From: Amoebophrya sp. A120
Lineage: Eukaryota > Protista > Dinoflagellata
DNA length: 64,000 nt
Assembly (NCBI GenBank): GCA_905178155.1
Contig: CAJINV010000002.1
Span: 303,713-367,712, forward strand
Direction: 5' to 3'
Within the stretch, counting starts at the first letter, position 1, and every line of letters begins with the position of its first letter. The notes below the pieces were generated by a model that worked only from the letters and a program-made list of their open reading frames with translations, was not told the origin of the DNA and searched no databases. Positions 1-64,000 of this stretch are shown here, in pieces. Both the position numbers and the translations under genes were made by a program.

Positions 1-1186
1 AACGGGCACCGCAGCTGTTTCCCTGGCTCCGTCCTTCTCCTCCACTCGTTCCAGCAGGGGCATCAAAGTGAAAGCCCCCCCCTCCCCACATCGAAACGAA
101 ATTTCTGACGCTGGAATTGCGCACACAAATCAAATTTGTCTCTGCAGGCCCATATCGTGCCAATGTAGAGAGGTTTTGGCCTAGGCAGTTGGCAGGAGGA
201 ACGTCTATGCTGTAGGACCAACAGCATTGCAAATCGCCGGCATAATCGGGCGGAGCCCGTGCCGTCGCTTTCTTGCAAGACAGACCCGATTTGTGGTCAC
301 AAATCAGCATTACAAATTCTCTGAGGCGTTCCTTTTCGATAAGGGGAGGGGGGATTTTTCCTCACGATAAGGAGTCGCAGAACCTTTTTGCGCAACACGG
401 GGTCTATCCTGTGCAAAAGTATCGCACTCGTAGTAATTGCGGTTATGCATTACAAATCTTTTTCCTAAGGTCAATCAGCATAACAAATTCCATTTCTCAC
501 GCTGAGGAAATTTGTAATGCAATTCATACTAGTACGATGCTTTTGCAATTCATAGGGTCAATTTTACTTCGGCGATGTTGGATTCCCCACAGATGGGACA
601 GCAATTATCCTGCTGTATGGGAGAGCACAACAACTCCCCCTCTCCCTCATTTGTCAATCCAAAATTATAACAAATCCAAGCGCTCCTGTTGCGTGGTGCC
701 GTAGTTTGCATGACAGATTCCGGAAGGAGCCGAAACAGGTGGACTACATTCGGCACGACACACATTTACCATGAATTGGCTCCACCTCCACGCGCTGTGC
801 TTGTGTTTGTATTTACTGTTCATGCCAACATACACATGAGGGGGAAAAGGGGGGGTTGTTACTCTCATATCCTGTTCTTGCCCATCAGCTGCTGCGGGCG
901 CAGTTGTACTAGCCACAACAGGTGCAGCGGTTGCGGCGGGTGGAGCAGCAGAAGGATTGTCGGGCGGGTTTACTATTGCGCTGGACGAAGCACCTCTAGC
1001 TCTAGGTGGACTACGATTGATATTATTACCACGACGATGGCGCGGTGGCTGCAGAGCGGAGACAAAACTACCAAAGCAATATTGGTCTTCGAACAACCCG
1101 ACGTGCTGGAAGAGAGTCTGCACGCACAAGAGGCCGGCGACGCAAAGACGACCGAAGTTGATGCTCTTGCAGTGGTGCGCCGTCAT
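1..1186 (-). CDS. RING-finger protein with N-terminal hydrophobic (signal-like) segment; 3 introner introns; runs off the window edge
   Basis: Exons 1186-870, 610-555, 399-370, 55-1 (each element plus one TSD removed) read MTAHHCKSINFGRLCVAGLLC...QEQEDNCCPICGESNIAEVKLTPCCAKRFCDSCWNEWRRRTEPGKQLRCP, which has RING-type Cys spacing. Confidence 0.85.
61..369. mobile_element. Introner element family D (TIR core AAAATCCCCCTCCCC)
   Basis: CATC...GATA ends, TIR, flanks AGGGG/AGGAG; removal restores the RING frame. Confidence 0.85.
405..554. mobile_element. Introner element family B (TIR core TGCAAAAGTATCG(C/T)ACTCGTA)
   Basis: TAT...ATA ends, perfect TSD GGGTC. Confidence 0.9.
616..869. mobile_element. 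Introner element family H (TIR core CAACTCCCCCTCNCCTCATT)
   Basis: TAT...ATA ends, TSD TGCTG/TCCTG; related to 29331-29551. Confidence 0.8.
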
Positions 1187-1990
1187 GATTGCAGTTTTGG
1201 GCTTAGGAAATGATGATTTTAAAAAATAAAAATGATGATTTAGGAAATGATGATTTAAGCTTCGGAAATAAACTTGTCCGATTTTTGCAAGGAGTACAGT
1301 AAAGCTCTGCTTCAGGATTTAGTTCGTACTTGTAGTTGTAGAGGTATCTTTTATTTGTAACGCAGGGTAAGCACGTAGTAACGACTTCAAAAAAAACGAC
1401 TGTTCCGGTTACTGCATTTGTTGGTCCAAGAATGGAGTGGCTTAAATGTATTTTCTTTGGCAGAAACAATTTGCCGAAGGTGCGGCAGCACATTGATCCT
1501 TATTCTTAAACCGACGACCCGTCGACAAAAATTGATTCCGCAAAATTTGCATGGATGCACACTGAGTGGTCGTGGGGCTAAAGCTGACTAGTGTCCCAAA
1601 ACTTTCATTCATCATCATCATCATCATCAAAATTTGCATGGATCTTTCTCCTGGTAGGACAACATTTCTTGCACAAGTATGGCGTTCTCAAACGTTACAT
1701 TCTCAACTGTTACATGGTTTGTCATGCAAAATTGCCTTCAGAAGCGACACCATCAAGCTGCTTCGCATGACAAATTCTCAGAGGGCCAAGTAGGGTGATA
1801 ATGGGCGCCAAGTCTGTCATGCAAGACGCGCAAGATCGCCCCTATCACTTTTGCCATTCTTGCATCACGAATTCATGTAACAGTTGAGAATGTAACGTTT
1901 GAGAACGCCATAACAAGGTAATTTGGATCGCGGTTTCGGGTGTGGATCTTCATCTTGCTTTGGTTTCTGTTCTTGACTCCTCACTAGTAC
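1050..1990. repeat. Segmental paralog block (gene 5' end plus upstream), similar to 5640-6230 and in part 2660-2850
   Basis: Colinear shared sequence, e.g. CACAAGAGGCCGGC.ACGCAAAG, AAAATTTGCATGGATC, GTGGATCTTCATCTT. Confidence 0.75.
1678..1912. mobile_element. Introner element family F
   Basis: Perfect 39-bp TIR TATGGCGTTCTCAAACGTTACATTCTCAACTGTTACATG; perfect TSD ACAAG; empty paralogous site near 6161. Confidence 0.95.
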
Positions 1991-2005
1991 CGCCGCCCGC
2001 GGTAG

Positions 2006-2264
2006 TATCAAATGTCTGGGTCTGGAAGAATACAACTCGTGATGCTACTTTTGGAATCTACATAAAAACTGTATTGCATGAACAGCAAAAGAGGTGTAAT
2101 TTGTGCTACGCGGAGAGGGCATTTCTCATGCGGTATGAGCATCAGAAAGCCCTCGCAAAATCTCTGATGCTAGGGCATGCATCACAGACCTCATCATGGG
2201 TCATGCAAAATGTGCATGACAAACTCCTGCATTCTTCCAGGCCCAGACATTTTTGCAATCCATA
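2006..2264. mobile_element. Introner element family A (TIR core ATGTCTGGGTCTGGAA)
   Basis: TAT...ATA ends, perfect TSD GGTAG. Confidence 0.9.
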
Positions 2265-2484
2265 GGTAGATATCAACGGCAATTTTCACTAGTAACCGAC
2301 AGACTCAGTTCTGGAGTGCCTTATAATTGGATCATTCTGTTCCTCCTTTCTACTTGTTGTGCCTTACATTAGGGTCTGATCGGAGTTCATGGAGGGAAAA
2401 TTTTATCGTCGCGGCGCACTGAATTCGCAAGCAGTTCCCGTTGTTACCGAAGTATCTTCTGTGATCTACTTGCCCGACGAATAA

Positions 2485-2630
2485 ATCTTGGGGAAATTTC
2501 TGCTGTGCGGTTAGAGAAAAAGACCATTTGTTGACTTTTTTATTCCTTGCTCTAAGTTCCAGGCACGATCCATTCTTGGCACACACAAACACACCGTCGT
2601 CCTGGCGATCTCAGAAGTAGTTCTCTGGGT
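2485..2630. repeat. Dispersed duplicated block, second copy at about 10265-10410
   Basis: GGGGAAATTTCTG...GGCGATCTCAGAAGTAGTTCTCTGGGTC is near-identical in both places. Confidence 0.8.
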
Positions 2631-4561: not shown

Positions 4562-5749
4562 CTAAACGTATATGGTTTCGGTGCCTCCAAAACTCACGCG
4601 GCGCTCAGTCGGGCTCCCCTGGCTGCCTACAGCTCTGGTCTGCTGACTGCCAGATCCGCCGCCACTTCGGCGCGCAGTCTGGCTCCACCGGGTTGCGGCG
4701 GTCGTTTTCGGGGCGGCCCGGGCTGCGCGCGGGTTTGGCATTGCGTTGGAACCTGCACTAGGACGACTATGGCCGGGGCTTCCTGCTCGCTGCCCACTTG
4801 CTTTCCCGACGGGTCGCACAGGATGAACACCAGCCGCAGCACGCCGCGTCCCCGTTACGGCGGTCGTTTTCGGGGCGGCTGGGGCAGTTTTACCAGCCGC
4901 AGCACGCCACGCCCCCGTTGCGGCGGTCGTTTTCGGGGCGGCTGGGGCAGTTTTACCAGCCGCAGCAAGCCGCGTCCCCGTTGCGGCGGTCGTTTTCGGG
5001 GCGGCTGGTGCAGTTTTACCAGCCGCAGCAAGCCGCGTCCTCGTTACGGCGGTCGTTTTCGGGGCGGCTGGGGCAGTTTTACCAGCCGCAGCACGCCGCG
5101 TCCGCGTTGCGGCGATCGGTTTCGGGGCGGCAGGGGCAGTTTTACCAGCCGCAGCAGGCCGCGTCATCGTTGCGGCGGTCGTTTTCGGGGCGGCTGGGGA
5201 AGTTTTACCAGCCACAGCAGGCCGCGTCCTCGTTGCGGCGGTCGTTTTCGGGGCGGCTGCGGCAGTTTTACCAGCCGCAGCAGGCCGCGTCCTCGTTGCG
5301 GCGGTCGTTTTCGGGCCGGCTGTGCGCTGGTTTGTCATCGTAAGAAAAAGATGTCTCAGTCTCAGCTTGTAATGCGGAACTTCCTTGAGACCGTTTTTCT
5401 TTTTTGATGTAGACATGCTCACCTCCATGCAAGAGAGTCGCCTTTCATGATAGGGGTTTATTTCCCTTGCTGTTTGAAGCATCAGAAATTTTTTGCTTCT
5501 TGTTTCGCAAATTTGTAAGTGGTGTTGAGTCAACATCTGCATCAAAGGTTTGGGACTGAGACAGATTTTTCTTACGATATTTGTGGCTGTGGAAGCTGTA
5601 CTAGGACAACTGGGACTCGGATTCAAAGCGAAAACAGCAGCACCACCAAATAAATCTTGTCCGAGCAGCGCGACGCGGAGGCAACTACACAAGAGGCCGG
5701 CAACGCAAAGGCGACCAAGATTGGGGTTCTTTTTGTAGTGGTGCGCCAT
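4562..5749 (-). CDS. Putative secreted basic Ala/Thr/Pro-rich tandem-repeat protein; N-terminus paralogous to the gene at 1186
   Basis: MAHHYKKNPNLGRLCVAGLLC hydrophobic N-terminus; about eight 21-aa repeats; contains the in-frame family I element. Confidence 0.7.
   Translation of the reverse strand: MAHHYKKNPNLGRLCVAGLLCSCLRVALLGQDLFGGAAVFALNPSPSCPSTASTATNIVRKICLSPKPLMQMLTQHHLQICETRSKKFLMLQTAREINPYHERRLSCMEVSMSTSKKKNGLKEVPHYKLRLRHLFLTMTNQRTAGPKTTAATRTRPAAAGKTAAAAPKTTAATRTRPAVAGKTSPAAPKTTAATMTRPAAAGKTAPAAPKPIAATRTRRAAAGKTAPAAPKTTAVTRTRLAAAGKTAPAAPKTTAATGTRLAAAGKTAPAAPKTTAATGAWRAAAGKTAPAAPKTTAVTGTRRAAAGVHPVRPVGKASGQRAGSPGHSRPSAGSNAMPNPRAARAAPKTTAATRWSQTARRSGGGSGSQQTRAVGSQGSPTERRVSFGGTETIYV
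4828..5315. repeat. 63-bp coding tandem repeat, about 8 copies
   Basis: CGGTCGTTTT recurs at 4861, 4924, 4987 and onward; encodes AAAGKTAPAAPKTTAATRTRP-like units. Confidence 0.95.
5336..5579. mobile_element. Introner element family I (TIR (C/T)ATCGTAAGAAAAANNTGTCTCAGTC)
   Basis: About 27-bp TIR, perfect TSD TTTGT. Confidence 0.9.
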
Positions 5750-7810: not shown

Positions 7811-9853
7811 TCACTGCTCTGCTCCCTCCTGCTCATCACCCTGCGCCGAGCGTACCAGTCTGGCCGCTTCGGCTAGCAGTCTGCGTGCTTCGGTATACAG
7901 TCTGTCTGCTTCGTCGAACAGCTGCTCCCGGCGGACTAGATCCGCACGTGGTATTTCCATTTCGGCTAGCACCAGTCTGCTTCCTTCTTCCCCCATGTTA
8001 TCAAATGTAAAAGTGTCTGGGTCTGGAAGGATGCGACTTGTCATGCTAAATCTGAAGCATGCAAAAATCTGTGTTGCATGATTACCAAAAGTCGTCCAGT
8101 TTTGCCCAAGTCGGGAGGGAGGCTCTCATGCAGGATATTAGGCATGAGCAGAGAGATCCTCGCACAGAATCTGTCATCGACTAGGTCCTGCATTCCAGAC
8201 CTCATGGGTCATGGAATAAAAGCTGCATGACAAATCTGACAATCTTCCAGACCCAGACATTTTTACAATCCATACATTGCGCTTGCTCGCTCCGTCAGTC
8301 TGATTCCTTCCCTTAATGACAACTCCTGCGGGGACAACTGCACAACCTCCCGGCACACTGGGCAGCTTGGTTCCGTCGTATCCTGCGTAAAATTGGATTC
8401 CCACACCATCCATAGTCGACTAGAAGTCGAGAAGATCCGTATTACAAGAAGCTGTTGAAGAGAGGTTTTGCTTTCGGGTCGTGTTGCGCATCACAAAATT
8501 GCATCGGGCAAGTAAAAATCGGCGTCAGCTAGTGTAGGTGCGAAGCTGTCACAAACGGACTTTCTGATCTCGACGAGAAGAATATGACAACATGACATGA
8601 TTCCCAAAGATTTACATTTAACACCTTCTTGTATGCTTACAAATAAACGTTCCTTCTGGAAGTGCGGTTTTTCATGCGACACACTGACCATCCATCATCA
8701 TCATCATCGTGATTGACTTATCTCCTCTCCTAGCATGCTGCAAATTTGCGTGACCGTGAACATGGTGTGGGTCCTCGTTCGTTCTTTTCAGCTGCATATA
8801 ATTCACATGTCGATAACCACTGGCCGATGCAGCCGGTACAAAACTTGTGACCGCAGGAGCTTAGGGCCTTTTCGTCGCGTATTTGTTCCAGACAGATTGG
8901 ACAGTTGTCACGGTTGGGCGAGCCGTCCTGTGCTATGGCGTTCTCAAATGTTGCATTCTCAACTGTTACATAAATTTGTGATGCAAGAGCTGCAACAGTC
9001 AAAGGTGCAAGCTTGCAGCTTTCGCATCACAGATTTGGCACGGATTCAGATGGTGTTTAGCCGTTCGGAGATTTGTCATGCGAAGCAGCTTGATCATCTA
9101 CCGGATCAAGGTAGTTTTGCATGACAAATTAATGTAACAGTTGAGAATCATGTAACATTTGAAAACGCCATATGTACATCGCCAGCACTGTGGCCGGACA
9201 GGTGGGCGACGTCGTGTGCATCGCCAGCCCCACGTATGCAAGAAAAAAACTGTGTAGGTGTAACTCTGTAATGCAGAACATGTAACAGAGTTACATCTGT
9301 GATGCCAGAAAGCCACGAGGCCTCTTTTCATGTGTGTTTTCCCTTACATGCCACGCATGACAGGTTTTCTCTGTCATGTAGAGCAAACTTGTGATGCTGT
9401 TAGCCAAAGAAAGTTACACTAACACAGTTTTTTTCTTGGATACCACGACTACGACTACGACTACGAGGACGGACCTGCAAGGCGAAAACAGGAAAGAAAT
9501 CTCTGTGACGTAGAAACATGTCTGGGTCTGGAAGGAACTTGTGATACTACAGTATGGAGGATGAGTCTGGTGCAGCTTTCAAGTGCAAGCAAGCACGACA
9601 AATTTTCTTGACGCTGTCTGAAGATGCGTAGCACGCATCACAAACTGCGTCTTTGCCTGACAAAAAAGTAACACCTTTGCTGGCTATGCAACACAGTTTG
9701 CTCAGGAATGCTAGACAGGCAACACAAGTTTCACTTTTCCAGACCCAGACATATTTGCATTTGATACTCTACGGCGACGTACAAGAATGCGGTCTGCAGG
9801 CACAAGAGAGCGGCAACACAAAAACGAGAGGAGCTGCTACGAAGGCGCGCCAT
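7811..9853 (-). CDS. RING-HC protein with N-terminal hydrophobic segment and C-terminal coiled coil; at least 5 introner introns (8415-8815 unresolved)
   Basis: Spliced: MARLRSSSSRFCVAALLCLQTAFLYVAV..FFPVFALQVRPRSRSRSRGAGDAH...DNCPICLEQIRDEKALSSCGHKFCTGCIGQW...PSCPVCREVV...ASAMGEEGSRL...EAARLVRSAQGDEQEGAEQ*. Confidence 0.75.
7999..8274. mobile_element. Introner element family A
   Basis: TAT...ATA ends, TIR, TSD CATGT/CATTG; removal joins the CPVCR exon to the MGEEG exon. Confidence 0.85.
8440..8635. mobile_element. Degenerate family C-like element
   Basis: TATTACAAGAA...TTCTTGTATG ends with GCATCACAA-type motifs; boundaries uncertain. Confidence 0.45.
8934..9172. mobile_element. Introner element family F
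   Basis: TIR TATGGCGTT..CAACTGTTACAT; TSD TGTGC/TGTAC. Confidence 0.9.
9235..9442. mobile_element. Introner element family C (TIR core CAAGAAAAAAACTGTGTNNGTGTAACT)
   Basis: TAT...ATA ends, perfect TSD CCACG. Confidence 0.92.
9504..9766. mobile_element. Introner element family A (left end eroded)
   Basis: ATGTCTGGGTCTGGAA...TTCCAGACCCAGACATATTTGCATTTGATA. Confidence 0.8.
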
Positions 9854-44892: not shown

Positions 44893-45152
44893 TATGCATT
44901 GCAAATATGTCTGGGTCTGGAAAAAAGCAACTTGTCATGGTAAATCTGAAGCATGGAAAAATCTGTGTTGCATGAGGGCCAAAAGCTGTCCACTTTTGAC
45001 CAAGTTGGAAGGGAGTTTCTCATGCAGGATAGGCATGGCAGAGACCTCGCAGAATCTGTCATGCTAAGTCCCAGACTCAGACCTCATGGGTCATGGAAAA
45101 TCTGCATGACAAGTCTGCATTCTTTGAGACCCAGACATATTTGCCTTTGATA
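44893..45152. mobile_element. Introner element family A
   Basis: Perfect TSD TCCTC. Confidence 0.92.
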
Positions 45153-45231: not shown

Positions 45232-45397
45232 TATCCTGTGCAAAAGTATCCGATACTCGTAGTAATTATCGCAGTCATGCATTACAAGTTTCGCTTTCGT
45301 TCTCAAGTTCAATCCGCGTTACAAATTTCATTTCTCATGCTGAGGAAATTTGTCATGCGATTTATACCTAGTGGGCGCGATGCTTTTGCATTTCATA
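45232..45397. mobile_element. Introner element family B (copy at +7754)
   Basis: TSD CAAAA/GAAAA. Confidence 0.9.
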
Positions 45398-45426: not shown

Positions 45427-45571
45427 TATGCAGTGCAAAAGTATCGTACTCGTATAAATGCATTACAAATTTCCTCAGCATGACAAATAAAATTTGTGAT
45501 GCTGATTTACCTTAAGAACAAGATTTGTAATGCATGATTGCAATACGAGTACGATGCTTTTGCAGTTCATA
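45427..45571. mobile_element. Introner element family B (copy at +7754)
   Basis: Perfect TSD GGTAA. Confidence 0.92.
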
Positions 45572-45620: not shown

Positions 45621-45832
45621 TATCCAAGAAAAAAACGTTGTTAGAAGTGTAAATTTGTGATGCGCAACATGCAAAAAGATTGCGTCTGTCATGCTTGGCA
45701 TGCGTCGTAGGGTTCAGTAAAGGACGTTTTCACGTAGTATCTGCGCATGACAGGTTTTTGCTGTCATGCCAGACGAATTTGTAATGCTGTTCCTCCAAAA
45801 AAGTAACACCTACAACGTTTTCTTCTTGGATA
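45621..45832. mobile_element. Introner element family C (copy at +7754)
   Basis: Perfect TSD CTCCT. Confidence 0.9.
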
Positions 45833-49808: not shown

Positions 49809-52696
49809 CTACGGACGCACCGAGTCCGGTGCTGGTGCAGCGGACGAAGGATCATTCGTGAGTTGCAAATTAAGTTCTTGTGCAGCAGACAAGAACCGCC
49901 CGCCAGAGGTGGATGCGGGTCCTGGTCGTCCCACGAGGTACAGCTTGGCCAGGTCCGTATCGAAAGGAAAAGACCCCCCTTTCCATATCAAAACGGAATT
50001 TCTGACGCTGGATCTGTGTACACAAATCAGCCTTGTATTGCAGGAAGGCACTGCGGCCAGTTCCCCAGGCTAGGTAGGGGCGTATGGGTCTAGTTGCTCA
50101 GCATGTCAAACGGCTCCCCTTTAGGCCCAACAACATGACAAATCGCTTTCATAATGGGGCGGAAGCTTCTGCCCTTGTCTTCTTGCAAGACAAATGCGAT
50201 TTGTGACCTCAAATCAGCAACACAAATTTTCGGAAACATACCTTTTCAATATGGGGAGGGGGAGTTTTTCCTTTCAATATCCCGCTGCTCGTGAATCCCG
50301 GATCTCCGCGAGTTCATTTGTTGCAAATTTATCGCGATTATCAAATCTAAATTTGTCTGGGTCTGGAAGAATGCAAACTTCTCATGCATTTTTTCCATGC
50401 CGATGCCCCATGAGGTTTGAAATGCGAGACGTAGCATGACAGGTTCTGCGACGTCTCACTCTATCATGCCTATCCTGCATGACAGACTGCCTCTAAACTT
50501 GTTCAAAAGTGGACAGCTTTTGGTAGTCATGCAACACAAATTTGTGTACGATCCAGACTTAGCATGACAAGTTCGTGTCCTCGTCCCAGACCCAGACATA
50601 TTTGCAATGCATAGCGATCCGCTTCAGTGATGTGCTGCCCGGGTTGTCCTGGTGCTGCTGCTGGAGTCCAGTATGCATTGCAAAAGTACACCCGTATATT
50701 AGTGGCACACGCATTACAAGCAGCTTATTTCGATGTCCCAAAAGGAGAGATGGATTTTTTTGTACTGCTGATTTATGATCACTTAGGACGAGCAGATCTG
50801 TCATGCACGCGACTGCAAAAATTATATTATGTAAGTACAAGTGAACGATAGTACTTTTGCACATGATATCCAACGAAGGTGGTATGCAACAGGCGGAGCA
50901 TTTTTACTGCAAGAAAGCCTTTCTCTACTACTCCGAGCAAGAGACTCGTCCTTCAGAGCTTCTTTTGTCAGTGTCTTGTTGGTCAGCAACGGCATCTTTT
51001 GTCTCGACCATTCGGATCGCCTACCGTGTTCAAGATTCTCGGAGCTCCTGCCCGATGAAGGTGGAGCGGCCCCAGTCCCTGTCCCTGGTGCAGTTGTTCC
51101 GTCGCCGCTAGAAGCAGCCTTGTCGTCCTTCACGGTGCAGCTGTCACTCTGCTTGTGCCGCTTCCTCGGCGGCGCTCCTACCACATCCATGGACACCTTT
51201 CCAGTTCCATGCCACGTAACATCTTTAACATAGGGATACTCTTTTTCGCCGGGAAGCTCCTTTTTATCACGATCTTCCGCTGAAGCAAGCAGTGGTACTC
51301 CACCGCCTGGCGAGGAGGCCACGCGGCTGGCCGTCGAACCAGCGGAATCAGCTGCTGCTGCACCCACGTATCAACTGTAAAAATGTCTGGGTCTGGAAAC
51401 TTGTAATGCTGGGCGGCGTATCATGAGGAGGCTACAAGTGCTGGCTCAGCATGACAAGTTTCTGAGCTTCTTAGTGTTGCCTATTCTGCATGACAGACTG
51501 CGTTTCTGCATGACAGAAAAATGGGAGCTTTGGGTAATGTGCAGGACAAATTTAAGAATCATGTGAGACAAGCATGACAAGCTTGCATTCTTCCAGACCC
51601 AGACATTTTTGCAATCCATACCACGGCGGAACTGCTGCACCCAAGCACCCACGGCGGAATCTGCTTTTCCGGGGCGTACTTGTCACGCAGAAGAATGGTA
51701 TGCACTGCAAAAGTATCGCACTCGTAGTAACTGCAGTCATGCATTTTTCTATTTCTTTTTATAGGTAAATCCGCATATACAAGAAATTTTATTTCTCGTC
51801 ACACTGAGGATGAAATTTTTTGTATACGAATTCATTATACGAGTATAGAAACAGATACTTTTGCAATGCATAAATGGCCGCCTTTTGCTTCTCCTTGCCA
51901 CATTTGGTAAGGGTTTCCGCTGCGTCTTTTAGAAGGTTCGTCACATTGTCCTTCACGCCCAGTTCTTTCAACATGGCTACCAAGGCGAGCTTTGTCTCCA
52001 CGGCGGAACTGCTGCATATGGCGTTCTCAAATTATCGGTTAGTACCTTCTCAACTGTTACATGAATTTGTAATGCAAGAATGCCAATGAAATTAAAAGTG
52101 CAAGGGTGAAGTAGAGCGCGGCTTTTGCATTACAGGTTCCGCACAGATTTAGATGCTGTTTGGCCATTTGGAAATTTGTCATGCGATAGTAAGCTTGATG
52201 ATAGTGATACTGATGACAGTTTTGCATGACAAATTCATGTAACAGTTGAGAAGGTAACCGATTTGAGAGCCCCATACTGCACCCAAAAAAACACGGCGGT
52301 ATCTGGCGGTTCCCCGGCAGACGAATGGTATGCAGTGCAAAAGCATCGTACTGCTCGTAGTAAAAATTGGCAATGATGCATTTTTATTTTATAGGTAAAT
52401 CTAAATCCGCATTACAAATTTTACTTCTCACGCTGAGGAAATAATTTGTAAAAATGCGACGAGTATTATAGATACTTTTGTATAATGCATAAAAGGTATT
52501 GAGAGGAAAAATCCCCCTCCCCATATCGAAAAAGTATCTTTCCGAAAATTTGCATTGCTGATTTGAGGTCACAAATCACATTTGTCTCGTAAGAGGACAA
52601 GGGTAGAAGCTTCCGCCCCATTATGGAAGCGATTTGTCATGCTGTTGGGCCTAAAGGTCAGCCGTTTGCAATGCTGAACAACTAGACCCATACGCC
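49809..52696 (-). CDS. First (partial) copy of the 3' part of the helical-repeat gene
   Basis: Essentially identical to 57563-60450; splices in frame through the B, F, B, A, B, A, D elements to TAG at 49809. Confidence 0.6.
49958..50279. mobile_element. Introner element family D (copy at +7754)
   Basis: TAT...ATA ends, TSD GTCCG/TCCCG. Confidence 0.88.
50339..50613. mobile_element. Introner element family A (copy at +7754)
   Basis: Perfect TSD GCGAT. Confidence 0.9.
50672..50868. mobile_element. Introner element family B, diverged (copy at +7754)
   Basis: TSD TCCAG/TCCAA. Confidence 0.85.
51369..51620. mobile_element. Introner element family A (copy at +7754)
   Basis: Perfect TSD CCACG. 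Confidence 0.92.
51699..51872. mobile_element. Introner element family B (copy at +7754)
   Basis: Perfect TSD AATGG. Confidence 0.9.
52017..52276. mobile_element. Introner element family F (copy at +7754)
   Basis: Perfect TSD CTGCA. Confidence 0.9.
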
Positions 52697-54837
52697 NATC
52701 TGAAGCATGCAAAAATCTGTGTTGCATGAGTGCCAAAAGCTGTCCACTTTTGACCAAGTTGGAAGGGAGTTTCTCATGCAGGATAGGCATGGCAGAGACC
52801 TCGCAGAATCTGTCATGCTAAGTCCCAGACTCAGACCTCATGGGTCATGGAAAATCTGCATGACAAGTCTGCATTCTTTGAGACCCAGACATATTTGCCT
52901 TTGATATCCTCCCCAATCAAGCCAAACCTTGCCAGCTTGCTGGGCTGCGTGTCGCCGTCGCCACGAATTGCTAGTTTGCGCAAAATATCCTGTGCAAAAG
53001 TATCCGATACTCGTAGTAATTATCGCAGTCATGCATTACAAGTTTCGCTTTCGTTCTCAAGTTCAATCCGCGTTACAAATTTCATTTCTCATGCTGAGGA
53101 AATTTGTCATGCGATTTATACCTAGTGGGCGCGATGCTTTTGCATTTCATAGAAAACCTTCTCTCGTTCTGGTTCGGTAATATGCAGTGCAAAAGTATCG
53201 TACTCGTATAAATGCATTACAAATTTCCTCAGCATGACAAATAAAATTTGTGATGCTGATTTACCTTAAGAACAAGATTTGTAATGCATGATTGCAATAC
53301 GAGTACGATGCTTTTGCAGTTCATAGGTAAGTTCTTCCACCCAACTGTCCACCCAATGCGCCAGATGACCTCCTTATCCAAGAAAAAAACGTTGTTAGAA
53401 GTGTAAATTTGTGATGCGCAACATGCAAAAAGATTGCGTCTGTCATGCTTGGCATGCGTCGTAGGGTTCAGTAAAGGACGTTTTCACGTAGTATCTGCGC
53501 ATGACAGGTTTTTGCTGTCATGCCAGACGAATTTGTAATGCTGTTCCTCCAAAAAAGTAACACCTACAACGTTTTCTTCTTGGATACTCCTTGAGGAGCA
53601 CTGTCTTGATCTTCCCTTCCGCGGACAAGCATGCGCACTGCGTCTGCAGTTCCGACTTTTCCGAAAATCAGCTGCGGCCCGAAGAGGAGCGAAGCTCCAA
53701 GAAAGTTGTACAAGAACCCTGTTGCTGTGAATAAGCTGGCGCAGCTGCTGCAGACGCGACGAGAGACGGAAAGCGCCATTTTGGAGTCGGGAGGACGATA
53801 AAGCGTACGGAAGAAGATCGAAAACAAAGCGAATTTCTACTTGTTGAGGTCGTCGTATACTAAAGTTGCTATAAAACTTCAATTTTTGGCTGTTCTCTAG
53901 CCCTGGAAATAGGATAAAAACAGTTGTTGCAGTAGTAGATTTCGACGTAGTCCTCGCGCACCAGGACTAGAAAGACGTTTTTTACAGTTTTTATATCTCT
54001 AGAAGTAGAACCAACATCTTCAGACCATCGATGACAATAATCCAATTCTGTAGTTACACGTCCTGCGTGAGGTGATCCCATTCTGGGGTGCGCGAATTGC
54101 ACCTGCACAACGTGTGTGGTGCGCGAATTACATCACGAATCTTTTCTTGCATTACTTTTCTAGACCCAGGCATATTTGCATTTGCTTTTGCGCTGGATAG
54201 CTGGATACAAGATTTAGGACAAAAACATTGCGAAGAAGCTCCTTGTTAGGGCAAGACCTCTACTTTCTGATCTGGTGCTCCACGGGGGATCAATTACTTT
54301 CTGAGCTCTCCTCCTCCATTGCTCTACTTTCTGATTCTCATCTGCTCCGCGGGGGATCAATAAATTGCGTCAATTAGCTGCACTGTATTAATTCTCGAAC
54401 ACTACAACCGCGTTGGGAAAAATCCAGGCTCGAGCAGCACCCCAAATTTTTTCACTTCTTGCTCCAAAAATTGCTCTAGGCTAGTATGTACCTGTTTCAA
54501 AAACTGCTTAGAAACTGCTGGCAACTGCCCAGTCAGCACATAAGCAAAGCAAAATCGGTATTTTGTCGTTAATTTTCCGCGTAATTCCACCGCGGCTCCA
54601 GCTTCCTGAAGCTGAATTCGGTAGCTTTTGAAATTTGTTCTTGCGCAAGAACAAGTACACGCGCAAGTTACAGCCCTCTTTTCGTTCCTTTCGTCTTCAA
54701 GTGTGCAAAGGCTTTTTACCCACCCACACGATACAGATTCCACCCAGCATTACAAACAAAAATGGCATTCGATTTGTTGGTCCTCCTGCATTGCATTCCC
54801 GCCCAATTTACGGCTCTACGCTGGGCGGCGCAGGATC

Positions 54838-55596
54838 TCAACCTTCAAACCACCACTGTAACCGAGCAAGCACCGCACTCATGTTCTTCAGCGTAACACT
54901 CTTTGTCGCCGTTCCGAGCTTGAGCCGGTAGTTGTGATGAGTGACGAGGCAGTCCCGCAGATCGCGGAGAACCCCCTTGTCCTGGGATGGAATCTCGCCA
55001 AGCTTCGCCTTGAGCTGTTGTGCGTTGCTCGGAAAAAAAAGATAGTTGTAGGGGTCGTTCAGAGGAAAGTGAAATTTGTAAACTGCAACCAAGCCGTCTG
55101 CAGCCATTGCCCGGAAGGCATGCTGATCCTCCAAGTCAGACCCGTCGCCACCTGTTGGAGACGTCATTACCGGGACTTCCCCATCCCAGCCGGGCAGATC
55201 GGTGTCTGGAATTTCGCTGTAGTTGTCGGTGTTCATCATCATCTGGTCGGCATGGTCTACTTCTACGTCCATCGCATTGGGATTTCCATCACTGGAGATG
55301 CGCGTAGCTCTTTGTCGACTCCGACTCCGACTCCGACGCCGCTCCCGATCATAAAGGTAAAGCTGTTCTTCCGGTACCTCTTCTACATGGAAAGTCCCTT
55401 GACGTCCACGACTTCCTTGCTGCCAATTCATTCGCACTGCATCTGCGGACATCAAGGCTTCTAGACAGAGCTGCGGCAAAAAGAACATCATGGGCGAGCC
55501 AAGAAAGACCTTTGATGCCGTCGTGGTGAAAAAGCTGATGAAGATCTTGCAGACGCGACGAGAAATAACGGGAAGTGACCTCCCACGAATGACCAT
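54838..55596 (-). CDS. Duplicate of 47084-47842
   Basis: Identical 252-aa ORF within the duplicated block. Confidence 0.6.
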   Translation of the reverse strand: MVIRGRSLPVISRRVCKIFISFFTTTASKVFLGSPMMFFLPQLCLEALMSADAVRMNWQQGSRGRQGTFHVEEVPEEQLYLYDRERRRSRSRSRQRATRISSDGNPNAMDVEVDHADQMMMNTDNYSEIPDTDLPGWDGEVPVMTSPTGGDGSDLEDQHAFRAMAADGLVAVYKFHFPLNDPYNYLFFPSNAQQLKAKLGEIPSQDKGVLRDLRDCLVTHHNYRLKLGTATKSVTLKNMSAVLARLQWWFEG

Positions 55597-57562
55597 TTTG
55601 GAGTCGGGGCGAGAGGTGGGGGAAGATGGAAAATATAGATGTATGAGTTCTTCTTGTAGATAGAGGGTCGTCGTCGAAGATTCAAAATCTGCGCTCGTGG
55701 AGGTCGTCGTACAGTGGGTCTAGAATTTGAATTGTTGGCTGTCTAGCAGCACTGGATGAATTGGAAATAGAGTCATACAACTGTTTTTGTAGTAGGCCTT
55801 CGATGAAAAATCCAATTCTGTAGCTCCACCTCCACCTGCAATTCTTGTTTTGTTTTGTCTTAGTTTTTTCGAATAAAGGGGAAAGTAAATTTTGGCCTCG
55901 AAAAAATTGTACACCAGAGCTACGGATAAATCGTAAGGTCGGAGTATATGACTCAGCTGCGGTTAATTATAGGGTGTTGATAGCCTTAATATCGTTATCG
56001 ATGATACCGACCCCGGCGGTTGCAGAAGCCGAAGTAGGTGCACGAAAACGAATCTGGTTATTTTTTTTGTTGGGTATAAATGAATTTTCTGCCTCCACCT
56101 TTTGTCAGAGACAGACCGAGCTGAGTCCGCTTTGTCTAGGCCCTCTAGGCCCGGCCACTCTGAACGCCTAGACCGATCTGACTCCGCTCAATTCGTTCCG
56201 AATGTGATGGCTTTGCCCTCATAGTATTTGATGGGGGGTTCGTATCCCGACCAACGTCATTTCGAACCGATTTACACACACATCAGCCAACGAAGATTTT
56301 TCATAATTAGAGACCCTAACCCTTGCTCCTTTGACCGCACTTGCTCATTTTGATTCTGTGATCTTTGCAATCAGAACCTGATGGGAAAGATGTAGTGGAA
56401 GGTCATTGATCATGAGATCAAACTTCTAAGTAAACCGATTCTCGTGCAGCTTGTTCTAGCGGAGAAAGCACAGTAGAGGCTCACAGCTGGGATCCATACT
56501 GTCCGCATTTCGATGTACGAAGTTTGATCATTTTGGTGAAATTCTGTATAGACCAAATCGAGAGAAGATACTACGACGCGCTACTGGCCGGCGGAAGTAG
56601 CACTGTTTTGGACGTCGATCCTGAAGATCGATAGCTCCGCGCGAAGTTGTACACCGATTCATCAGCCTCCACAACACGACGACGGTCCTCGCATGAAAAA
56701 AAACAGAACTGTCTGCGTTTTTTCCTCTTGAAGATCGCTGACCAACGAACAGAGCAGGCGTGAGTAGTTGTCCCCGTATTTAAGGTTCATGTGAAGATTA
56801 AGAAAAAATCTTGTTCGAGGAGTCGTGCTCTTCGCCTCTCCGATCCGCAGGACCCGCCGAGCAGACACAGTGCGATAGACATAGTTTCTCTTTTGACACC
56901 CTAAGTCCTACTTTCCTTACTCAAAACGAGCAGCCAATGAAAAAACGAATAGTACCATCGCCATAGGCTGAAATCCAACTCACTAGCACCACCTCCCGGC
57001 GACCCGCCCTCGTACGGTAGTACTCAAGAGAATTCCAAGTGTTCCAGCTCGTGCCCATCTAAACATGGCGCAACTTCTTCTTCGTCAGCAGGAAGCTGCG
57101 GTCCGGAAGTAAAATAAACTGGACTCACTTTCTATCGTCGAGGAGAGCAGCCAAAGGAGTTGCATTTGTTTTCCCAGCCCCGTCATACTGTGGCGCTTCG
57201 ATTGAAAATAAAAGCGCACAACATGATCATGAATAAGTGGCACAAAAGGTACGACCTAATCCAAAAAATTCCGTATGGTATGCTTGCGAAGTAGTTCTGG
57301 TAGGAGGTTAAATTTGTTAGGGTTTGAGTGGAGGTGCTACATGAATCATCATACAGGAAAAAATTTTGTCGAAAACGGGCCCTCCACAAATGAAGAGCCT
57401 CCACGAAGATCGGTAAAAACATAAGACACAATTATATTTTGCGACCAGAGTGCTTCTACGTCGCCAGCGCACAGCAACGAAACATTTATATATTCAGAAG
57501 AAGGATCACCAAAACTAGAGTTTATCGGTCGTTTTGACCGAACCGCCAAAAGCAGCACTAGC

Positions 57563-60500
57563 CTACGGACGCACCGAGTCCGGTGCTGGTGCAGCGGACG
57601 AAGGATCATTCGTGAGTTGCAAATTAAGTTCTTGTGCAGCAGACAAGAACCGCCCGCCAGAGGTGGATGCGGGTCCTGGTCGTCCCACGAGGTACAGCTT
57701 GGCCAGGTCCGTATCGAAAGGAAAAGACCCCCCTTTCCATATCAAAACGGAATTTCTGACGCTGGATCTGTGTACACAAATCAGCCTTGTATTGCAGGAA
57801 GGCACTGCGGCCAGTTCCCCAGGCTAGGTAGGGGCGTATGGGTCTAGTTGCTCAGCATGTCAAACGGCTCCCCTTTAGGCCCAACAACATGACAAATCGC
57901 TTTCATAATGGGGCGGAAGCTTCTGCCCTTGTCTTCTTGCAAGACAAATGTGATTTGTGACCTCAAATCAGCAACACAAATTTTCGGAAACATACCTTTT
58001 CAATATGGGGAGGGGGAGTTTTTCCTTTCAATATCCCGCTGCTCGTGAATCCCGGATCTCCGCGAGTTCATTTGTTGCAAATTTATCGCGATTATCAAAT
58101 CTAAATTTGTCTGGGTCTGGAAGAATGCAAACTTCTCATGCATTTTTTCCATGCCGATGCCCCATGAGGTTTGAAATGCGAGACGTAGCATGACAGGTTC
58201 TGCGACGTCTCACTCTATCATGCCTATCCTGCATGACAGACTGCCTCTAAACTTGTTCAAAAGTGGACAGCTTTTGGTAGTCATGCAACACAAATTTGTG
58301 TACGATCCAGACTTAGCATGACAAGTTCGTGTCCTCGTCCCAGACCCAGACATATTTGCAATGCATAGCGATCCGCTTCAGTGATGTGCTGCCCGGGTTG
58401 TCCTGGTGCTGCTGCTGGAGTCCAGTATGCATTGCAAAAGTACACCCGTATATTAGTGGCACACGCATTACAAGCAGCTTATTTCGATGTCCCAAAAGGA
58501 GAGATGGATTTTTTTGTACTGCTGATTTATGATCACTTAGGACGAGCAGATCTGTCATGCACGCGACTGCAAAAATTATATTATGTAAGTACAAGTGAAC
58601 GATAGTACTTTTGCACATGATATCCAACGAAGGTGGTATGCAACAGGCGGAGCATTTTTACTGCAAGAAAGCCTTTCTCTACTACTCCGAGCAAGAGACT
58701 CGTCCTTCAGAGCTTCTTTTGTCAGTGTCTTGTTGGTCAGCAACGGCATCTTTTGTCTCGACCATTCGGATCGCCTACCGTGTTCAAGATTCTCGGAGCT
58801 CCTGCCCGATGAAGGTGGAGCGGCCCCAGTCCCTGTCCCTGGTGCAGTTGTTCCGTCGCCGCTAGAAGCAGCCTTGTCGTCCTTCACGGTGCAGCTGTCA
58901 CTCTGCTTGTGCCGCTTCCTCGGCGGCGCTCCTACCACATCCATGGACACCTTTCCAGTTCCATGCCACGTAACATCTTTAACATAGGGATACTCTTTTT
59001 CGCCGGGAAGCTCCTTTTTATCACGATCTTCCGCTGAAGCAAGCAGTGGTACTCCACCGCCTGGCGAGGAGGCCACGCGGCTGGCCGTCGAACCAGCGGA
59101 ATCAGCTGCTGCTGCACCCACGTATCAACTGTAAAAATGTCTGGGTCTGGAAACTTGTAATGCTGGGCGGCGTATCATGAGGAGGCTACAAGTGCTGGCT
59201 CAGCATGACAAGTTTCTGAGCTTCTTAGTGTTGCCTATTCTGCATGACAGACTGCGTTTCTGCATGACAGAAAAATGGGAGCTTTGGGTAATGTGCAGGA
59301 CAAATTTAAGAATCATGTGAGACAAGCATGACAAGCTTGCATTCTTCCAGACCCAGACATTTTTGCAATCCATACCACGGCGGAACTGCTGCACCCAAGC
59401 ACCCACGGCGGAATCTGCTTTTCCGGGGCGTACTTGTCACGCAGAAGAATGGTATGCACTGCAAAAGTATCGCACTCGTAGTAACTGCAGTCATGCATTT
59501 TTCTATTTCTTTTTATAGGTAAATCCGCATATACAAGAAATTTTATTTCTCGTCACACTGAGGATGAAATTTTTTGTATACGAATTCATTATACGAGTAT
59601 AGAAACAGATACTTTTGCAATGCATAAATGGCCGCCTTTTGCTTCTCCTTGCCACATTTGGTAAGGGTTTCCGCTGCGTCTTTTAGAAGGTTCGTCACAT
59701 TGTCCTTCACGCCCAGTTCTTTCAACATGGCTACCAAGGCGAGCTTTGTCTCCACGGCGGAACTGCTGCATATGGCGTTCTCAAATTATCGGTTAGTACC
59801 TTCTCAACTGTTACATGAATTTGTAATGCAAGAATGCCAATGAAATTAAAAGTGCAAGGGTGAAGTAGAGCGCGGCTTTTGCATTACAGGTTCCGCACAG
59901 ATTTAGATGCTGTTTGGCCATTTGGAAATTTGTCATGCGATAGTAAGCTTGATGATAGTGATACTGATGACAGTTTTGCATGACAAATTCATGTAACAGT
60001 TGAGAAGGTAACCGATTTGAGAGCCCCATACTGCACCCAAAAAAACACGGCGGTATCTGGCGGTTCCCCGGCAGACGAATGGTATGCAGTGCAAAAGCAT
60101 CGTACTGCTCGTAGTAAAAATTGGCAATGATGCATTTTTATTTTATAGGTAAATCTAAATCCGCATTACAAATTTTACTTCTCACGCTGAGGAAATAATT
60201 TGTAAAAATGCGACGAGTATTATAGATACTTTTGTATAATGCATAAAAGGTATTGAGAGGAAAAATCCCCCTCCCCATATCGAAAAAGTATCTTTCCGAA
60301 AATTTGCATTGCTGATTTGAGGTCACAAATCACATTTGTCTCGTAAGAGGACAAGGGTAGAAGCTTCCGCCCCATTATGGAAGCGATTTGTCATGCTGTT
60401 GGGCCTAAAGGTCAGCCGTTTGCAATGCTGAACAACTAGACCCATACGCCACTCGCTAGCCTGGGGATCTGGTCGCAATGCCTTCCTGCAATACAAATCT

Positions 60501-63500
60501 GATTTGTGTACGCAAATCCAGCATCACAGATTTCCTTTTTGATATGGGGAGGGGGGATTTTTCCTTTTCATAAAAGGCCATCAGTTGCTTCTTCTTCCCA
60601 CATTTGGCAAAAATAAGACCATCTCGGGTCGTCATATGTTCCTTCACGCCCAGTTCTTTCAACATGGCTGCGAGCTCAGCATCCTCGTCGGGATCATTTG
60701 ATGTCTCCTCGTCTGGCTGTACGACCGGTTGTTCAGGACGAGAAGTACAAGCCGATAGTACAGTGCCGACGTCCACGACCGGGGCCTCATGTTCGCTCGT
60801 GCTCTTGTCCTCGTCCTTCACTGTAGAAGTTTCACCCTGCTTATTGTTTCCCACCTGCTTCTTGATCTCGATGTAATTGGCCACACACTCCTTTATCGCG
60901 CTGTCATCCATGTTGGCGTTTTTCAGTTGCATTTCCCTCAACAAGGCTACCAAGGCGAGCATATCCTGTGCAGAAGCATCGCACTCGTATTGCAGTCATG
61001 CATTACAAATGCAAATCCTTTTGTTAAGGTAAATCCGCATTAGAAATTTTATTTCTCATGCTGAGGAAATTTGTAATGCATTTATACGAATACGATATTT
61101 TTGCAGTTCATAGACCACGCCGGGATCATTCGTCTCCTCGTCGGCCACGACCGGGGGCTCGCGTTCGTTCGTGCTCTTGTCCTCGTCCTTCACTAATGAT
61201 GTATCACCCTGCTTAATAGTCGTCCCCAGCTGCGTTTCCACTTCCCCAGCTGGTGCAGCCCCCTGGATCGTGGTTTCGGTAGCCGAGAGGACGGCGTTCT
61301 GTTGTGGGTTGTGGCCTTGAGGACCGCCTTCTTGCTCAGCAGCTCCTGCATGAACATCACCTGCATGATCTTCAATGCGGTTGAAGCGGTCCCAGTCAAT
61401 CTGCTCAGACGGATCTGCCGCATATTTGTCACGTAAGGTTTTCAGCGCATTGGCCTTGTTATGAATTGCAAAAGTATCGCACTCGTATAAATGCATTAAA
61501 TTTCCTCAGCATGAGAAATAAAATTTGTCAGGCGGATTTACCTTTTAACGCAAGACTTGCATTTATCATTTATACGAGTATCAGATAAGTACTTTAACTT
61601 TTGCACAGGATAATTGTGCATGCCGTCCGTATTCAGCAACGTGGTGGCCATGAGACTCTTATCCTGTGAAAAAAGTGTTACAGTTACACTCTCTGATGGA
61701 AGACAAGCAAGACAGACCACCTCTGTCATGCACGAAATGCTTTCCAGCCTCATTTTGTTCGTGTTTATTTCGATTATAGTCTGCGCATCTTCACAGGTTT
61801 TCTTTGCAACCATGTCGAGCAACTTTGTGATGCAGAAACTCCAACAAATGTGTAACTACTGCAACACTTTTTTCCTGTGATACATCTTCATCGCGTCGTC
61901 GTCCATGTTGGCGTTTTTCAATTTCAGGGTCTTCTATCCAATGCAAAAATCCCTGGATGTCTGGAAGAATGCAACTTGTGATGCTGCCTTTGGATGCCTA
62001 AAAAATTTGTGTTGCATGAGCAGGAAAAGGATTCTAATTTTTGCTACGCGGAGAGGGCGTCTGTCATGCGGATTAGGCATCAAGAATCCCTCAAAATAAA
62101 ACCTGTGATGCTAGGGCATGCATAAAAGAGGACATCATGGGTGGTCATGCAAACCGTGCATGACTACAGGTCTCAGAATCTTCCAGACCCAGACATTTTT
62201 GCATTTGATATCTTCAGCATTATGAACTGCAAAAGTATCGCACTCGTATAAATGCATTACAAATTTCTTCAGCATGAGAAATAAAATTTGTAGTGCGAAT
62301 TTGCATTAACAAAAGGATTTGTAATGCATGATTGCAATACGATACTTTTGCACAGGATAAGCATGCACACCAAGTCCGCCACGTTCTTCTCAAACCGTGA
62401 CGATATCGCAAGGAAAAACTGTTTCACGGTAAACTTGTGATGCAGAAAATGGAACGCAGAACAATTTGTCTTGCTACACCTGCATAGAACATTGGAGCTT
62501 CAACCGTGTTTTCCCCTGTGGGGAAAACGCAGGGGAAAACGCGCATGGCAGATTTTCTGTGTCATGTGTAACAAATAACTTGTGATGCTGATGTTGCAAA
62601 ATCATCACAGTGAAGCATTTTTCGTGGGATAGACGACCAGGCGCTTTTATTTCCCGACTTTAATGCAGCTGTTTCAGCGGGACGAGTTGTTGTATCAGAA
62701 GAAGATGACCCGCCTACGGGGCCTTCTTCTAGTACATCTCCCTTTTGTGGTTTCAGATCGGCGTTCTTCTGTTCGTCTTCGTCGCGCTTATTTTCCTGTG
62801 GTACAACTACTAGCGAGCGTTGAAGATGACCATGGTCTTTTGCTTGAGCAGTACTGCTCTTAAGAACTCTTGCGTGCTGTTGACCACCTGCACGACCTGC
62901 AATGCGGTCAAAGAGGTCCCAATTAATCTGCTTAGACGGATCTGCCGCAAATTTGCGGTGTAAGGCTCTCAGCGCGTCGTATTTGTCCATGCCCTTGCTC
63001 CACAACAATTGGGACTTCACGTGCAATATGCACTGCAAAAGCTGATGTGTCTTCGCACTCGTACAATAGATTTTGTGCAATCAACTTCAACTTGGTGCAA
63101 CACAACTTTCATTCCTCAAGGCTAAAGGCACATCTGCACTTACAAATTTCGTTTCTGATGCTAAAAAAGTTTGATGTCATGCAAAGATTTGTACGTAAAG
63201 TACGACTACGATGCTTTTGCAAAGGATATGCTGCTTCAAAATTACGTCGCTCATGCTATCAAATGCGAATATATATGTCTGGATCTGGAAAGTTGTGATG
63301 CTAAAATGTGCCGGACGAAAACGCTTCCTCAGGATGCAGGAGAGCATGACAAGTTTGCAGAGCGCTTCCTCACGACTCGCGGCGGCCCGCAGGAGAAAGT
63401 AGGTTTTTGTATGACACAAGAAGAGGCTGTGACTTTATATGTGGGTCATGCAGCAATACAGATCTCACAGGACGACTGTAAGACCAGCACTACAAGTTCC

Positions 63501-64000
63501 ACCAACTTTTCAGACCCAGATCGATATTTGCAACGCATACATGCCGGCATCCTTCAGCTTCATCATCTTTAGCATCGAGGTCAAATGCTTCACATCCTGC
63601 TCAAAGCGTGCCGTGGGGTCGTCGTTCTTGCCCGTAGTTTCATCGGCGGGACCACGAGGAGAGGCGGCGTTCTGTTCGTCTTCCGATCGGCGCTTCTCCT
63701 GTTGTACTTCTACTCGCGAGCCTTCTTGACCACGTGCTACTTTTTCTTGAGCAGTACTGCTCGCATTAAGAACTCTTGTGTGCTGTTGACCACCTGCACG
63801 ACCTGCAATGCGGTCAAAGAGGTCCCAGTCAATCTGCTCAGACGGATCTGCCGCAAATCTGGTGTGTAAGGCTCTCAGCACCTCGTATTTGTCCATGCCC
63901 TTGCTCCACAACAATTGGGACTTCACGTGCAATATGCACTGCAAAAGCTGATGTATCTACTTCGCATTCGTACAATAAATTTTGTGCAATCAACTTCAAC
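57563..64000 (-). CDS. Helical-repeat protein of unknown family (5' end outside window); at least 16 introner introns
   Basis: Continuous frame after splicing; recurring module RFE..V..L..MLK..KLK.A.M.D...K.....L....GM.K..AL..L..K.AADPS.QI.WD.F.RI. Confidence 0.8.
60083..60245. mobile_element. Introner element family B abutting a D element (also at 52329-52491)
   Basis: Flanks AATGG/AAAGG. Confidence 0.88.
60251..60572. mobile_element. Introner element family D inserted into the TSD of the B element (truncated copy at 52497-52696)
   Basis: Perfect TSD AAAGG, whose left copy is also the right TSD of B. Confidence 0.9.
60962..61112. mobile_element. Introner element family B
   Basis: TSD GAGCA/GACCA. 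Confidence 0.9.
61460..61612. mobile_element. Introner element family B
   Basis: TSD CTTGT/ATTGT. Confidence 0.9.
61660..61882. mobile_element. Introner element family C-like
   Basis: TATCCTGTGAAAAAAGTGTTACAGTTACAC / GTGTAACTACTGCAACACTTTTTTCCTGTGATA; TSD ACTCT/CATCT. Confidence 0.85.
61935..62210. mobile_element. Introner element family A
   Basis: Perfect TSD TCTTC. Confidence 0.9.
62221..62359. mobile_element. Introner element family B
   Basis: Perfect TSD AGCAT. Confidence 0.92.
62404..62631. mobile_element. Degenerate family C-like introner
   Basis: TAT...ATA ends, perfect TSD GACGA; removal joins AWS|SRFEK. Confidence 0.82.
63027..63228. mobile_element. Introner element family B (diverged)
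   Basis: TSD TGCAA/TGCTG; frame restored as KQH|VKSQ. Confidence 0.82.
63257..63539. mobile_element. Introner element family A
   Basis: Perfect TSD CATGC. Confidence 0.9.
63933..64000. mobile_element. Family B introner truncated by the window end, paralogous to 63027
   Basis: Nearly the same sequence, at the same position in the adjacent protein repeat. Confidence 0.8.

Follow-up and report, generated by a model that had tools for sequence, protein, structure and literature searches.

The stretch of Amoebophrya DNA analysed here (the window, 64,000 nucleotides (nt) long) holds 50 independent short elements, mostly with TAT...ATA ends and 5-nt flanking repeats, which are the introner elements already described from Amoebophrya sp. 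A120 (Farhat et al. 2021; Gozashti et al. 2025). We regard this identity, and the removal of the elements together with 5 nt, as virtually certain. As the best overall explanation, to which we give a probability of about 0.5, non-coding TAT...ATA transposons flanked by 5-nt duplications would be lost from transcripts with those 5 nt through a major spliceosome of relaxed requirements, one that cleaves a single base upstream of TAT and dispenses with both a G at +1 and an AG. An initial annotation had proposed such a removal rule as a new excision grammar. The rule is largely right, its 5-nt offset following from silent insertion; the novelty does not hold, since elements that start with TAT, direct repeats of 3-5 nt and one 5-bp case had been published (PMC7789003). 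That account describes A120 introners with inverted repeats starting with TAT and variable splice sites, and states that the mechanism by which more than 60% of introns are removed without GT-AG is open. Our analysis adds a uniform 5-nt duplication, a common motif, strand-asymmetric ends and a candidate register of the cut. The variety on record then comes down to a single deletion, one such register and two or three bases that are held, which makes the open mechanism testable.

Elements and their removal with 5 nt

An end-agnostic scan of the window, which required a terminal inverted repeat (TIR) matching at 14 or more of 20 positions and an exact flanking repeat, compared repeat lengths of 2-10. 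At length 5 it found 48 segments against about 5.6 expected, 28 of them with TAT..ATA ends, which at lengths 2-4 and 6-10 were among the top end types once only, at length 8. Seeded search followed by hand curation recovered the roughly 60 elements of the initial annotation; as the seeds were TAT or CAT elements, the TAT share is somewhat inflated in this set, while the unbiased scans are unaffected. Only 50 of the 60 are independent, because ten sit in a 7753-nt tandem duplicate (44944-52696 versus 52698-60450, 99.96% identical, around a single N at 52697) and are counted twice. The second copy probably results from misassembly and will exaggerate other findings made in the window. The ends of the 50 are, as annotated, nearly all TAT..ATA (45), with rare CAT..ATA (3), TAT..GTA (1) and TAT..TTA (1) variants, and A stands at position 13 in 48. 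Their 5-nt flanks match at 5/5 positions in 31, 4/5 in 13, 3/5 in 5 and 2/5 in 1, and an exact 4- or 6-nt flanking repeat occurs in none of the 50. Together with the peak at length 5, this bears out the annotated 5-bp direct repeats of arbitrary sequence, and all eight repeats listed there as mismatched (61, 616, 8934, 22248, 28867, 30802, 60962 and 61460) are real. Among the imperfect repeats, the copies differ at base 1 in 30802 and 50672, at base 4 in 22248 and at base 5 in 31377, 45232 and 61460. GT/GC-AG or AT-AC ends are possible in any register in 4/50 elements (GT/GC..AG in 2/50), in keeping with the annotated absence of a GT-AG requirement. Remnants or single ends without a partner at 6233-6510, 9514-9766, 11508, 28277-28448, 46433, 62404-62632 and 63933 were left uncounted.

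A 20-nt TIR motif led to 171 related loci, all from assembly JACKZZ01 (about 510 kb merged; 10 of 64 parts scanned). Here TAT..ATA ends mark 278 of the 346 TIR segments with exact 5-nt repeats; conversely, among 520 TAT..ATA segments, which include pairings of neighbouring copies, a 5-nt repeat flanks 278, a 4-nt repeat 2 and a 6-nt repeat none. The 393 elements called have a median length of 259 nt, and copies of 45 of the 50 window elements occur among the loci at 70-94% identity. Being short, multi-copy and non-coding, with TIRs and target site duplications (TSDs), they have the properties of miniature inverted-repeat transposable elements (MITEs); five of them (in L010, L011 and L072) also have ungapped empty paralogous sites that lack exactly element plus 5 nt. 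One orientation accounts for 45 of 98 and 32 of 59 copies in the two largest families, which supports removal independent of element orientation. In the 318 loci elements whose frame is confidently known, insertions are unevenly spread over the three phases (151, 96 and 71); we set this aside as evidence, since target and codon composition may explain it. The same 318 show a weak palindromic C...G target preference.

The link to Amoebophrya is supported by the loci: a Rab gene in L052 is exon for exon identical to a protein named Amoebophrya sp. A120 (P0004), from which the gene's four introners and its two introns with GT-AG ends are missing. A120 is very likely also the source of the window, although protein searches with window exons returned no matching protein. 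One GT-AG intron of the Rab gene (region L052:2121-2471) has introner-like motifs by eye and is possibly a decayed introner turned canonical.

Removal in silico of the element plus 2, 5 or 8 nt places 56-57 of 59-60 window junctions inside minus-strand open reading frames (ORFs) of at least 100 aa, against 37-44 at other offsets, in a test that resolves the offset modulo 3 only. The longest rebuilt ORF at these offsets is 1657 aa across nine junctions (at most 931 aa otherwise), and among the related loci 81-82 of 395 junctions fall in ORFs of at least 500 aa, compared with 17-20 at other offsets. Contigs of two runs from one sample (X1 and X2) were aligned to 12600-32300, which holds 19 whole elements. 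Among the joints listed, those of 285, 258, 239, 265 and 160 nt equal element plus 5 exactly, at five of the 19 elements; the remaining ten lie within elements or between element copies. Two further runs, of raw reads, were uninformative, with just 3 (X9) and 2 (X10) partial reads. The annotated restoration of the frame by deleting the element plus one repeat thus stands, and the RING and DUF4116-like motifs named with it were confirmed as domain matches on single exons. The proposed check of junctions in transcripts succeeded in part: element plus 5 was recovered from these probable RNA contigs, and the cut was not located. Because all five repeats are perfect, the joints do not place it, and none of the joints listed in 12600-32300 falls at a mismatched repeat.

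That no splicing occurs, the joined forms being element-free DNA alleles or products of excision from DNA, would fit the fact that X1 and X2, which come from a single sample, are only presumed to be RNA. It is nevertheless highly improbable. Long stretches between genes have zero contig depth (22455-25082), and within one gene four junctions in a row are skipped. Runs with 0.88-0.89 of the stretch's words, elements included, also exist, and 66,565 A120 introns, over 60% of them non-canonical, are supported by RNA-seq (PMC7789003).

The initial annotation saw in the 5-nt offset a mirror of the transposase's staggered cut. As a mechanism this fails, for whenever an insertion that duplicates 5 nt gives rise to a silent intron, the loss has to comprise the element and 5 nt (or 5 plus a multiple of 3). 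The rule provides a means of re-annotating A120 genes.

Common ends and a possible single transposase

When the 50 window elements are clustered at 50 bits or more, 7 multi-copy clusters and 7 singletons result; at 35 bits or more, 30 of the 50 merge. Both ends of all groups have in common TAT-S...AAA, with the strict pattern at both ends in 349 of 442 elements. In a de novo test the 8-mer GCATGACA appeared in 9 of 10 groups (shuffled maximum, 5), and the motif GCATNACAA, chosen by visual inspection, has 107 occurrences in the 16 kb that the elements occupy versus 16 in the 48 kb outside them. This internal motif is found in 406 of the 442 elements and in all 24 families of three or more. The description of the families as unrelated, with completely different TIRs, must accordingly be given up.

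From these sequence features we infer a single transposase type behind all groups, probably an integrase-like DDE enzyme in view of the TA..TA ends, which would act via the common TAT-S...AAA end and the GCATNACAA motif. The elements thus point to one transposase lineage, whereas PMC7789003 argued against transposase-driven spread. Automated calls for A120 families gave TSDs of 2-6 nt, and one TIR family has integrase-like ORFs (PMC12130899). As the initial annotation stated, no transposase is visible: domain scans found none in the window, nor in 117 of 208 long ORFs of the related loci, a sample covering under 1% of the genome; this tells against the proposal. The TIR motif is absent from the viral contigs searched. 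Long TAT...ATA elements of the kind in which a DDE transposase had been expected do occur (2353 and 1104 nt), neither with a transposase match. The first (31377-33729) lies inside a coding frame, has an interior of GC-rich tandem repeats of about 108 nt and gave no Pfam match in nine ORFs; the second (L024:505-1608), of another family and with a perfect 5-nt repeat, gave none in the only ORF scanned (238 aa).

Asymmetric ends, register of the cut and candidate machinery

The ends differ in how strictly they are held on the two sides of the transcript. An orientation was assigned to 387 elements: the 337 of 395 loci elements for which the strand call was confident, and the 50 of the window, taken as minus (a strand caller agreed in 45 of 48 confident calls). 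Among them, variants at 5' positions 1-3 number 1, 1 and 11, and those at the last, second-last and third-last 3' positions 10, 4 and 2 (Fisher p=0.0006). The asymmetry was first noticed in the window; the loci alone give p=0.005, and all 395 loci elements p=0.03. Measured against family consensus, position 3 differs in 12/318 versus 1/318 elements (p=0.003); it is one of 60 positions displayed, though the difference there had been predicted in advance. For position 1 the figures are 2 versus 9 (p=0.06), and pooling positions 4-30 reveals no asymmetry. The bases that are held are U-A at the 5' end and, at the 3' end, the A in third-last position. A transposase constraint would be symmetric; at the RNA level, the ends are not read symmetrically. 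Splicing keyed on paired TAT/ATA ends, as first annotated, is thus correct as to the removal of element plus 5 nt and incomplete as to how the ends are read.

Two genes with mismatched repeats bear on the register. At L052:1743-1896 the repeats differ at base 4, and P0004 and four close orthologs carry the Ala of the upstream copy, in a comparison whose six fungal rows are not aligned residue for residue. The mismatch at L043:8295-8550 concerns base 1: among the 109 homologs that align, out of 149 examined, the upstream-copy Gly is present in 98 and the alternative Glu in none. The upstream residue at both genes implies that the cut, if fixed, follows base 4 or 5 of the upstream repeat, which these protein comparisons make probable. 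A protein 100% identical to an exon of L043 (P0020) was rejected because it reads into the element and is not transcript-derived, and polarising the mismatches by AT bias was dropped (C>T 20 versus T>C 26 per 1000). Alignments to PDB entries end before the junctions, and no Pfam family was identified for the genes with base-5 mismatches. We found no paper that fixes the register or a strand asymmetry, although Figures 3 and S19-S25 of PMC7789003 may show part of this.

All four bases are common at each repeat position; GT-AG is possible in 13 of 262 elements, and GT/GC...AG, the ends of canonical U2 introns, in any register in only 15 of 262. An aligner-style placement inside the 5-nt ambiguity, with a junction scoring of our own choice, gives donors GT 0.35 and AT 0.18 and acceptors AG 0.37 and AC 0.19, where the published values for the largest family are GT 0.26, AT 0.17, AG 0.26 and AC 0.20; its top 10 contain 4 of the 9 top pairs in Table S4 of PMC7789003. 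The splice sites described in print as variable can be explained by a single fixed deletion.

In the spliceosomal consensus the donor reads G-U-A, with U at +2 and A at +3, and the branch base is an adenosine; in certain protists and yeasts the branch distance is short and fixed. If the cut followed base 4, the intron would begin with the last base of the upstream repeat, run through the element and end with the first four bases of the downstream repeat. Its donor would then be N-U-A, in the manner of G-U-A, and the held A in third-last position of the element would act as the branch base, with the acceptor 6 nt further on and defined by that distance. Long end-to-end stems are predicted for the elements (15559-15811, z -8.7; 22248-22396, z -7.2), and such a hairpin would bring the ends together in place of U1, which went undetected in A120, while U2, U4, U5, U6 and 83 of 89 spliceosome proteins were found (PMC7789003). 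We put a cut after base 4 with spliceosomal chemistry at about even odds. More tentative, and somewhat less probable, is its extension, in which a U1-less spliceosome would define tens of thousands of A120 introns by a hairpin and three bases, with a sequence-free acceptor, so that a single transposon lineage with TA..TA ends and a 5-bp TSD could insert silently, in either orientation, wherever it lands in an exon. If spliceosomal, removal of this kind would dispense with both a fixed first base and an AG.

Several results weigh against the relaxed spliceosome and its register. The register rests on two genes, because no read crosses a mismatched repeat, and both are compatible with base 4 and base 5 alike. 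No preference for G is seen at the proposed +1 (G at base 5 in 85, its mirror C at base 1 also in 85), and dinucleotides of the repeats show symmetry (p=0.32). No independent support comes from the NT donors in print, since an aligner-like pick yields a similar mix. Position 3 by itself reaches p=0.02-0.29 depending on the threshold, one window variant (5336) is of uncertain strand, and the position-1 asymmetry may reflect G-U wobble (A to G in 8 of 10); wobble cannot explain position 3, where the 5' U is free while its partner A is held. The proposed branch A lies very near the acceptor and is paired in 81% of 120 predicted structures, and a search for an internal branch signal found none, positions 31-45 being more variable on the 3' side. 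Finally, 14 of the 19 covered elements have no joint among those listed. Ab initio calling of canonical introns was too noisy (24 calls) to yield a branch consensus, and an Rfam search of 1-52600 gave no matches.

The same net deletion could result from a cut at the element's 5' edge, after base 5, or from one that slides within the repeat. Sliding within a perfect repeat would leave the mRNA unchanged, and the two informative genes fit base 5 as well. Single mismatches are synonymous in 22 of 43 cases (28% under neutrality, 34-44% expected if one copy is free) and create a stop in none of 60, hinting that both copies may be read at times; the excess is not significant under strong protein constraint (p=0.08-0.2), and sliding offers no reason for the fixed U and A at element positions 1-2. 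We consider this explanation improbable.

A non-spliceosomal route, in which an endonuclease recognises the stem formed by the termini together with a few bases and cleaves at set distances, the exons then being joined by a ligase, is a less likely though serious competitor. Long stems in both orientations, arbitrary junctions with GT-AG possible in so few elements, the undetected U1 and the lack of an internal branch signal all suit it; euglenid nonconventional introns offer a precedent (PMC11282704), and a stem-reading protein could also impose strand-asymmetric bases. Against it, the held 5' U-A and downstream A match the spliceosomal +2/+3 and branch roles, the spliceosome is retained, with GT-AG introns and introners in the same genes, and in Fritillaria the U2 spliceosome removes MITE-derived non-canonical introns.

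A special case is a pair of back-to-back elements at 60083-60572 (copy at 52329) with a single common 5-mer, an arrangement seen in none of the 395 loci elements. With a fixed cut, the intervening exon would have zero length, which implies recursive removal.

Known systems and feature coordinates

The elements resemble published A120 introners in their TAT-start inverted repeats ending in an A run, short direct repeats, length of about 240 nt, hairpins, non-canonical junctions and lack of a transposase, and published family lengths of 149, 209, 256-261 and 305 nt match our groups B, D, A and E. They depart from that account, with its 3-5 nt repeats and variable position, in that one 5-nt repeat and one deletion fit all groups, and they go beyond it in the common internal motif and the asymmetric reading of the ends. 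TA..TA ends, TIRs and the absence of a target consensus recall IS3EU and GingerRoot transposons (PMC10045372, PMC6839031), for which the TSD is usually 6 bp rather than 5 and the accessible accounts mention no intron role; membership fails on the TSD, as a 6-nt repeat flanks 0 of 520 segments and a 5-nt repeat 278. Euglenid nonconventional introns likewise have paired ends, here predicted as an end-pairing hairpin, with junction repeats and non-canonical borders, but theirs show a pyrimidine-purine junction and CAG/CTG pairing, whereas here the junction is arbitrary and TAT/ATA is held. The introns of Fritillaria borealis also have a TIR/TSD origin and are removed without GT-AG; unlike A120, which lacks a conserved acceptor and has U1 undetected, they have ends of the AG-AC/AG-AT type and keep U1. 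Introners of Aureococcus, Symbiodinium, Chrysochromulina and Florenciella are similarly DNA transposons that become introns on insertion; those with canonical splice sites carry or co-opt GT/AG so that only some targets work, while here the target is unconstrained (PMC9860276).

Table 1. Elements and other features of the window; fractions give the matching positions of the two 5-nt flanks.
Feature	Position	Strand	Remarks
Introner, group C	61..369	-	CAT..ATA; 4/5; RING gene
Introner, group B (~150 nt)	405..554	-	5/5
Introner, group H	616..869	-	4/5
Introner, group F	1678..1912	-	39-nt perfect TIR; 5/5
Introner, group A	2006..2264	-	5/5
Introner, singleton	5336..5579	-	CAT..ATA; 5/5; strand from 347-aa ORF, codon model weakly disagrees
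Introner, group A	7999..8274	-	3/5
Introner, group F	8934..9172	-	4/5; RING gene
Introner, group D	9235..9442	-	5/5
Introner, group G	13199..13478	-	Contig skip 285 = 280+5, in 2 runs
Introner, group A	14391..14652	-	5/5
Introner, group G	14727..15012	-	5/5
Introner, group A	15559..15811	-	Contig skip 258 = 253+5; predicted hairpin z -8.7
Introner, group A	16111..16344	-	Contig skip 239 = 234+5
Introner, group A	16467..16726	-	Contig skip 265 = 260+5
Introner, group B	16765..16919	-	Contig skip 160 = 155+5
Introner, group G	19541..19819	-	5/5
Introner, group E	19877..20184	-	5/5
Introner, group A	20759..21022	-	CAT..ATA; 5/5
Introner, group B	22248..22396	-	4/5, alternatives Glu or Lys; predicted hairpin z -7.2
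Introner, group A	27371..27637	host strand unclear	3/5
Introner, group B	28635..28784	-	TAT..GTA; 5/5
Introner, group D	28867..29079	-	4/5 (synonymous)
Introner, group H	29331..29551	-	TAT..TTA; 5/5
Introner, B-like	29614..29773	-	4/5 (synonymous)
Introner, group D	29882..30090	-	5/5; contig piece begins at 30091
Introner, group C	30419..30740	-	5/5
Introner, group E	30802..31112	-	4/5
Long element, group E ends, 2353 nt	31377..33729	-	4/5; removal joins 223-aa ORF
Introner, group B	33777..33928	-	5/5
Older introner, group E	36945..37292	-	2/5
Introner, group A	44893..45152	-	5/5
Introner, group B	45232..45397	-	4/5
Introner, group B	45427..45571	-	5/5
Introner, group D	45621..45832	-	5/5
Introner, group C	49958..50279	-	3/5
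Introner, group A	50339..50613	-	5/5
Introner, B-like	50672..50868	-	4/5
Introner, group A	51369..51620	-	5/5
Introner, group B	51699..51872	-	5/5
Introner, group F	52017..52276	-	5/5
Introner, group B	52329..52491	-	4/5; next element begins 5 nt on
Duplicate of 44944-52696 (99.96%)	52698..60450	.	Follows N at 52697; holds 10 duplicate elements
Introner, group C	60251..60572	-	5/5; one 5-mer in common with element 60083-60245
Introner, group B	60962..61112	-	4/5
Introner, group B	61460..61612	-	4/5
Introner, singleton	61660..61882	-	3/5
Introner, group A	61935..62210	-	5/5
Introner, group B	62221..62359	-	5/5
Introner, B-like	63027..63228	-	3/5
Introner, group A	63257..63539	-	5/5
Rebuilt host ORF, 1657 aa, DUF4116 repeat	12912..20244	-	Spans 9 introners; 5 junctions in contigs

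Apart from the elements, regions 1-9546 and 28121-35267 of the window encode several RING or Cys-rich zinc-finger proteins, and nearly all long ORFs lie on the minus strand. The RING-rich regions contain degenerate local duplicates, such as 3160-3522 and 6548-6911. Against the minus-strand trend, a 393-aa ORF at 39352-40533 (+) has a weak match to a cold-shock domain (E 0.007, below the cutoff). Among the related loci, L021:625-4080 holds a C-5 cytosine DNA methylase gene in two ORFs (PF00145).

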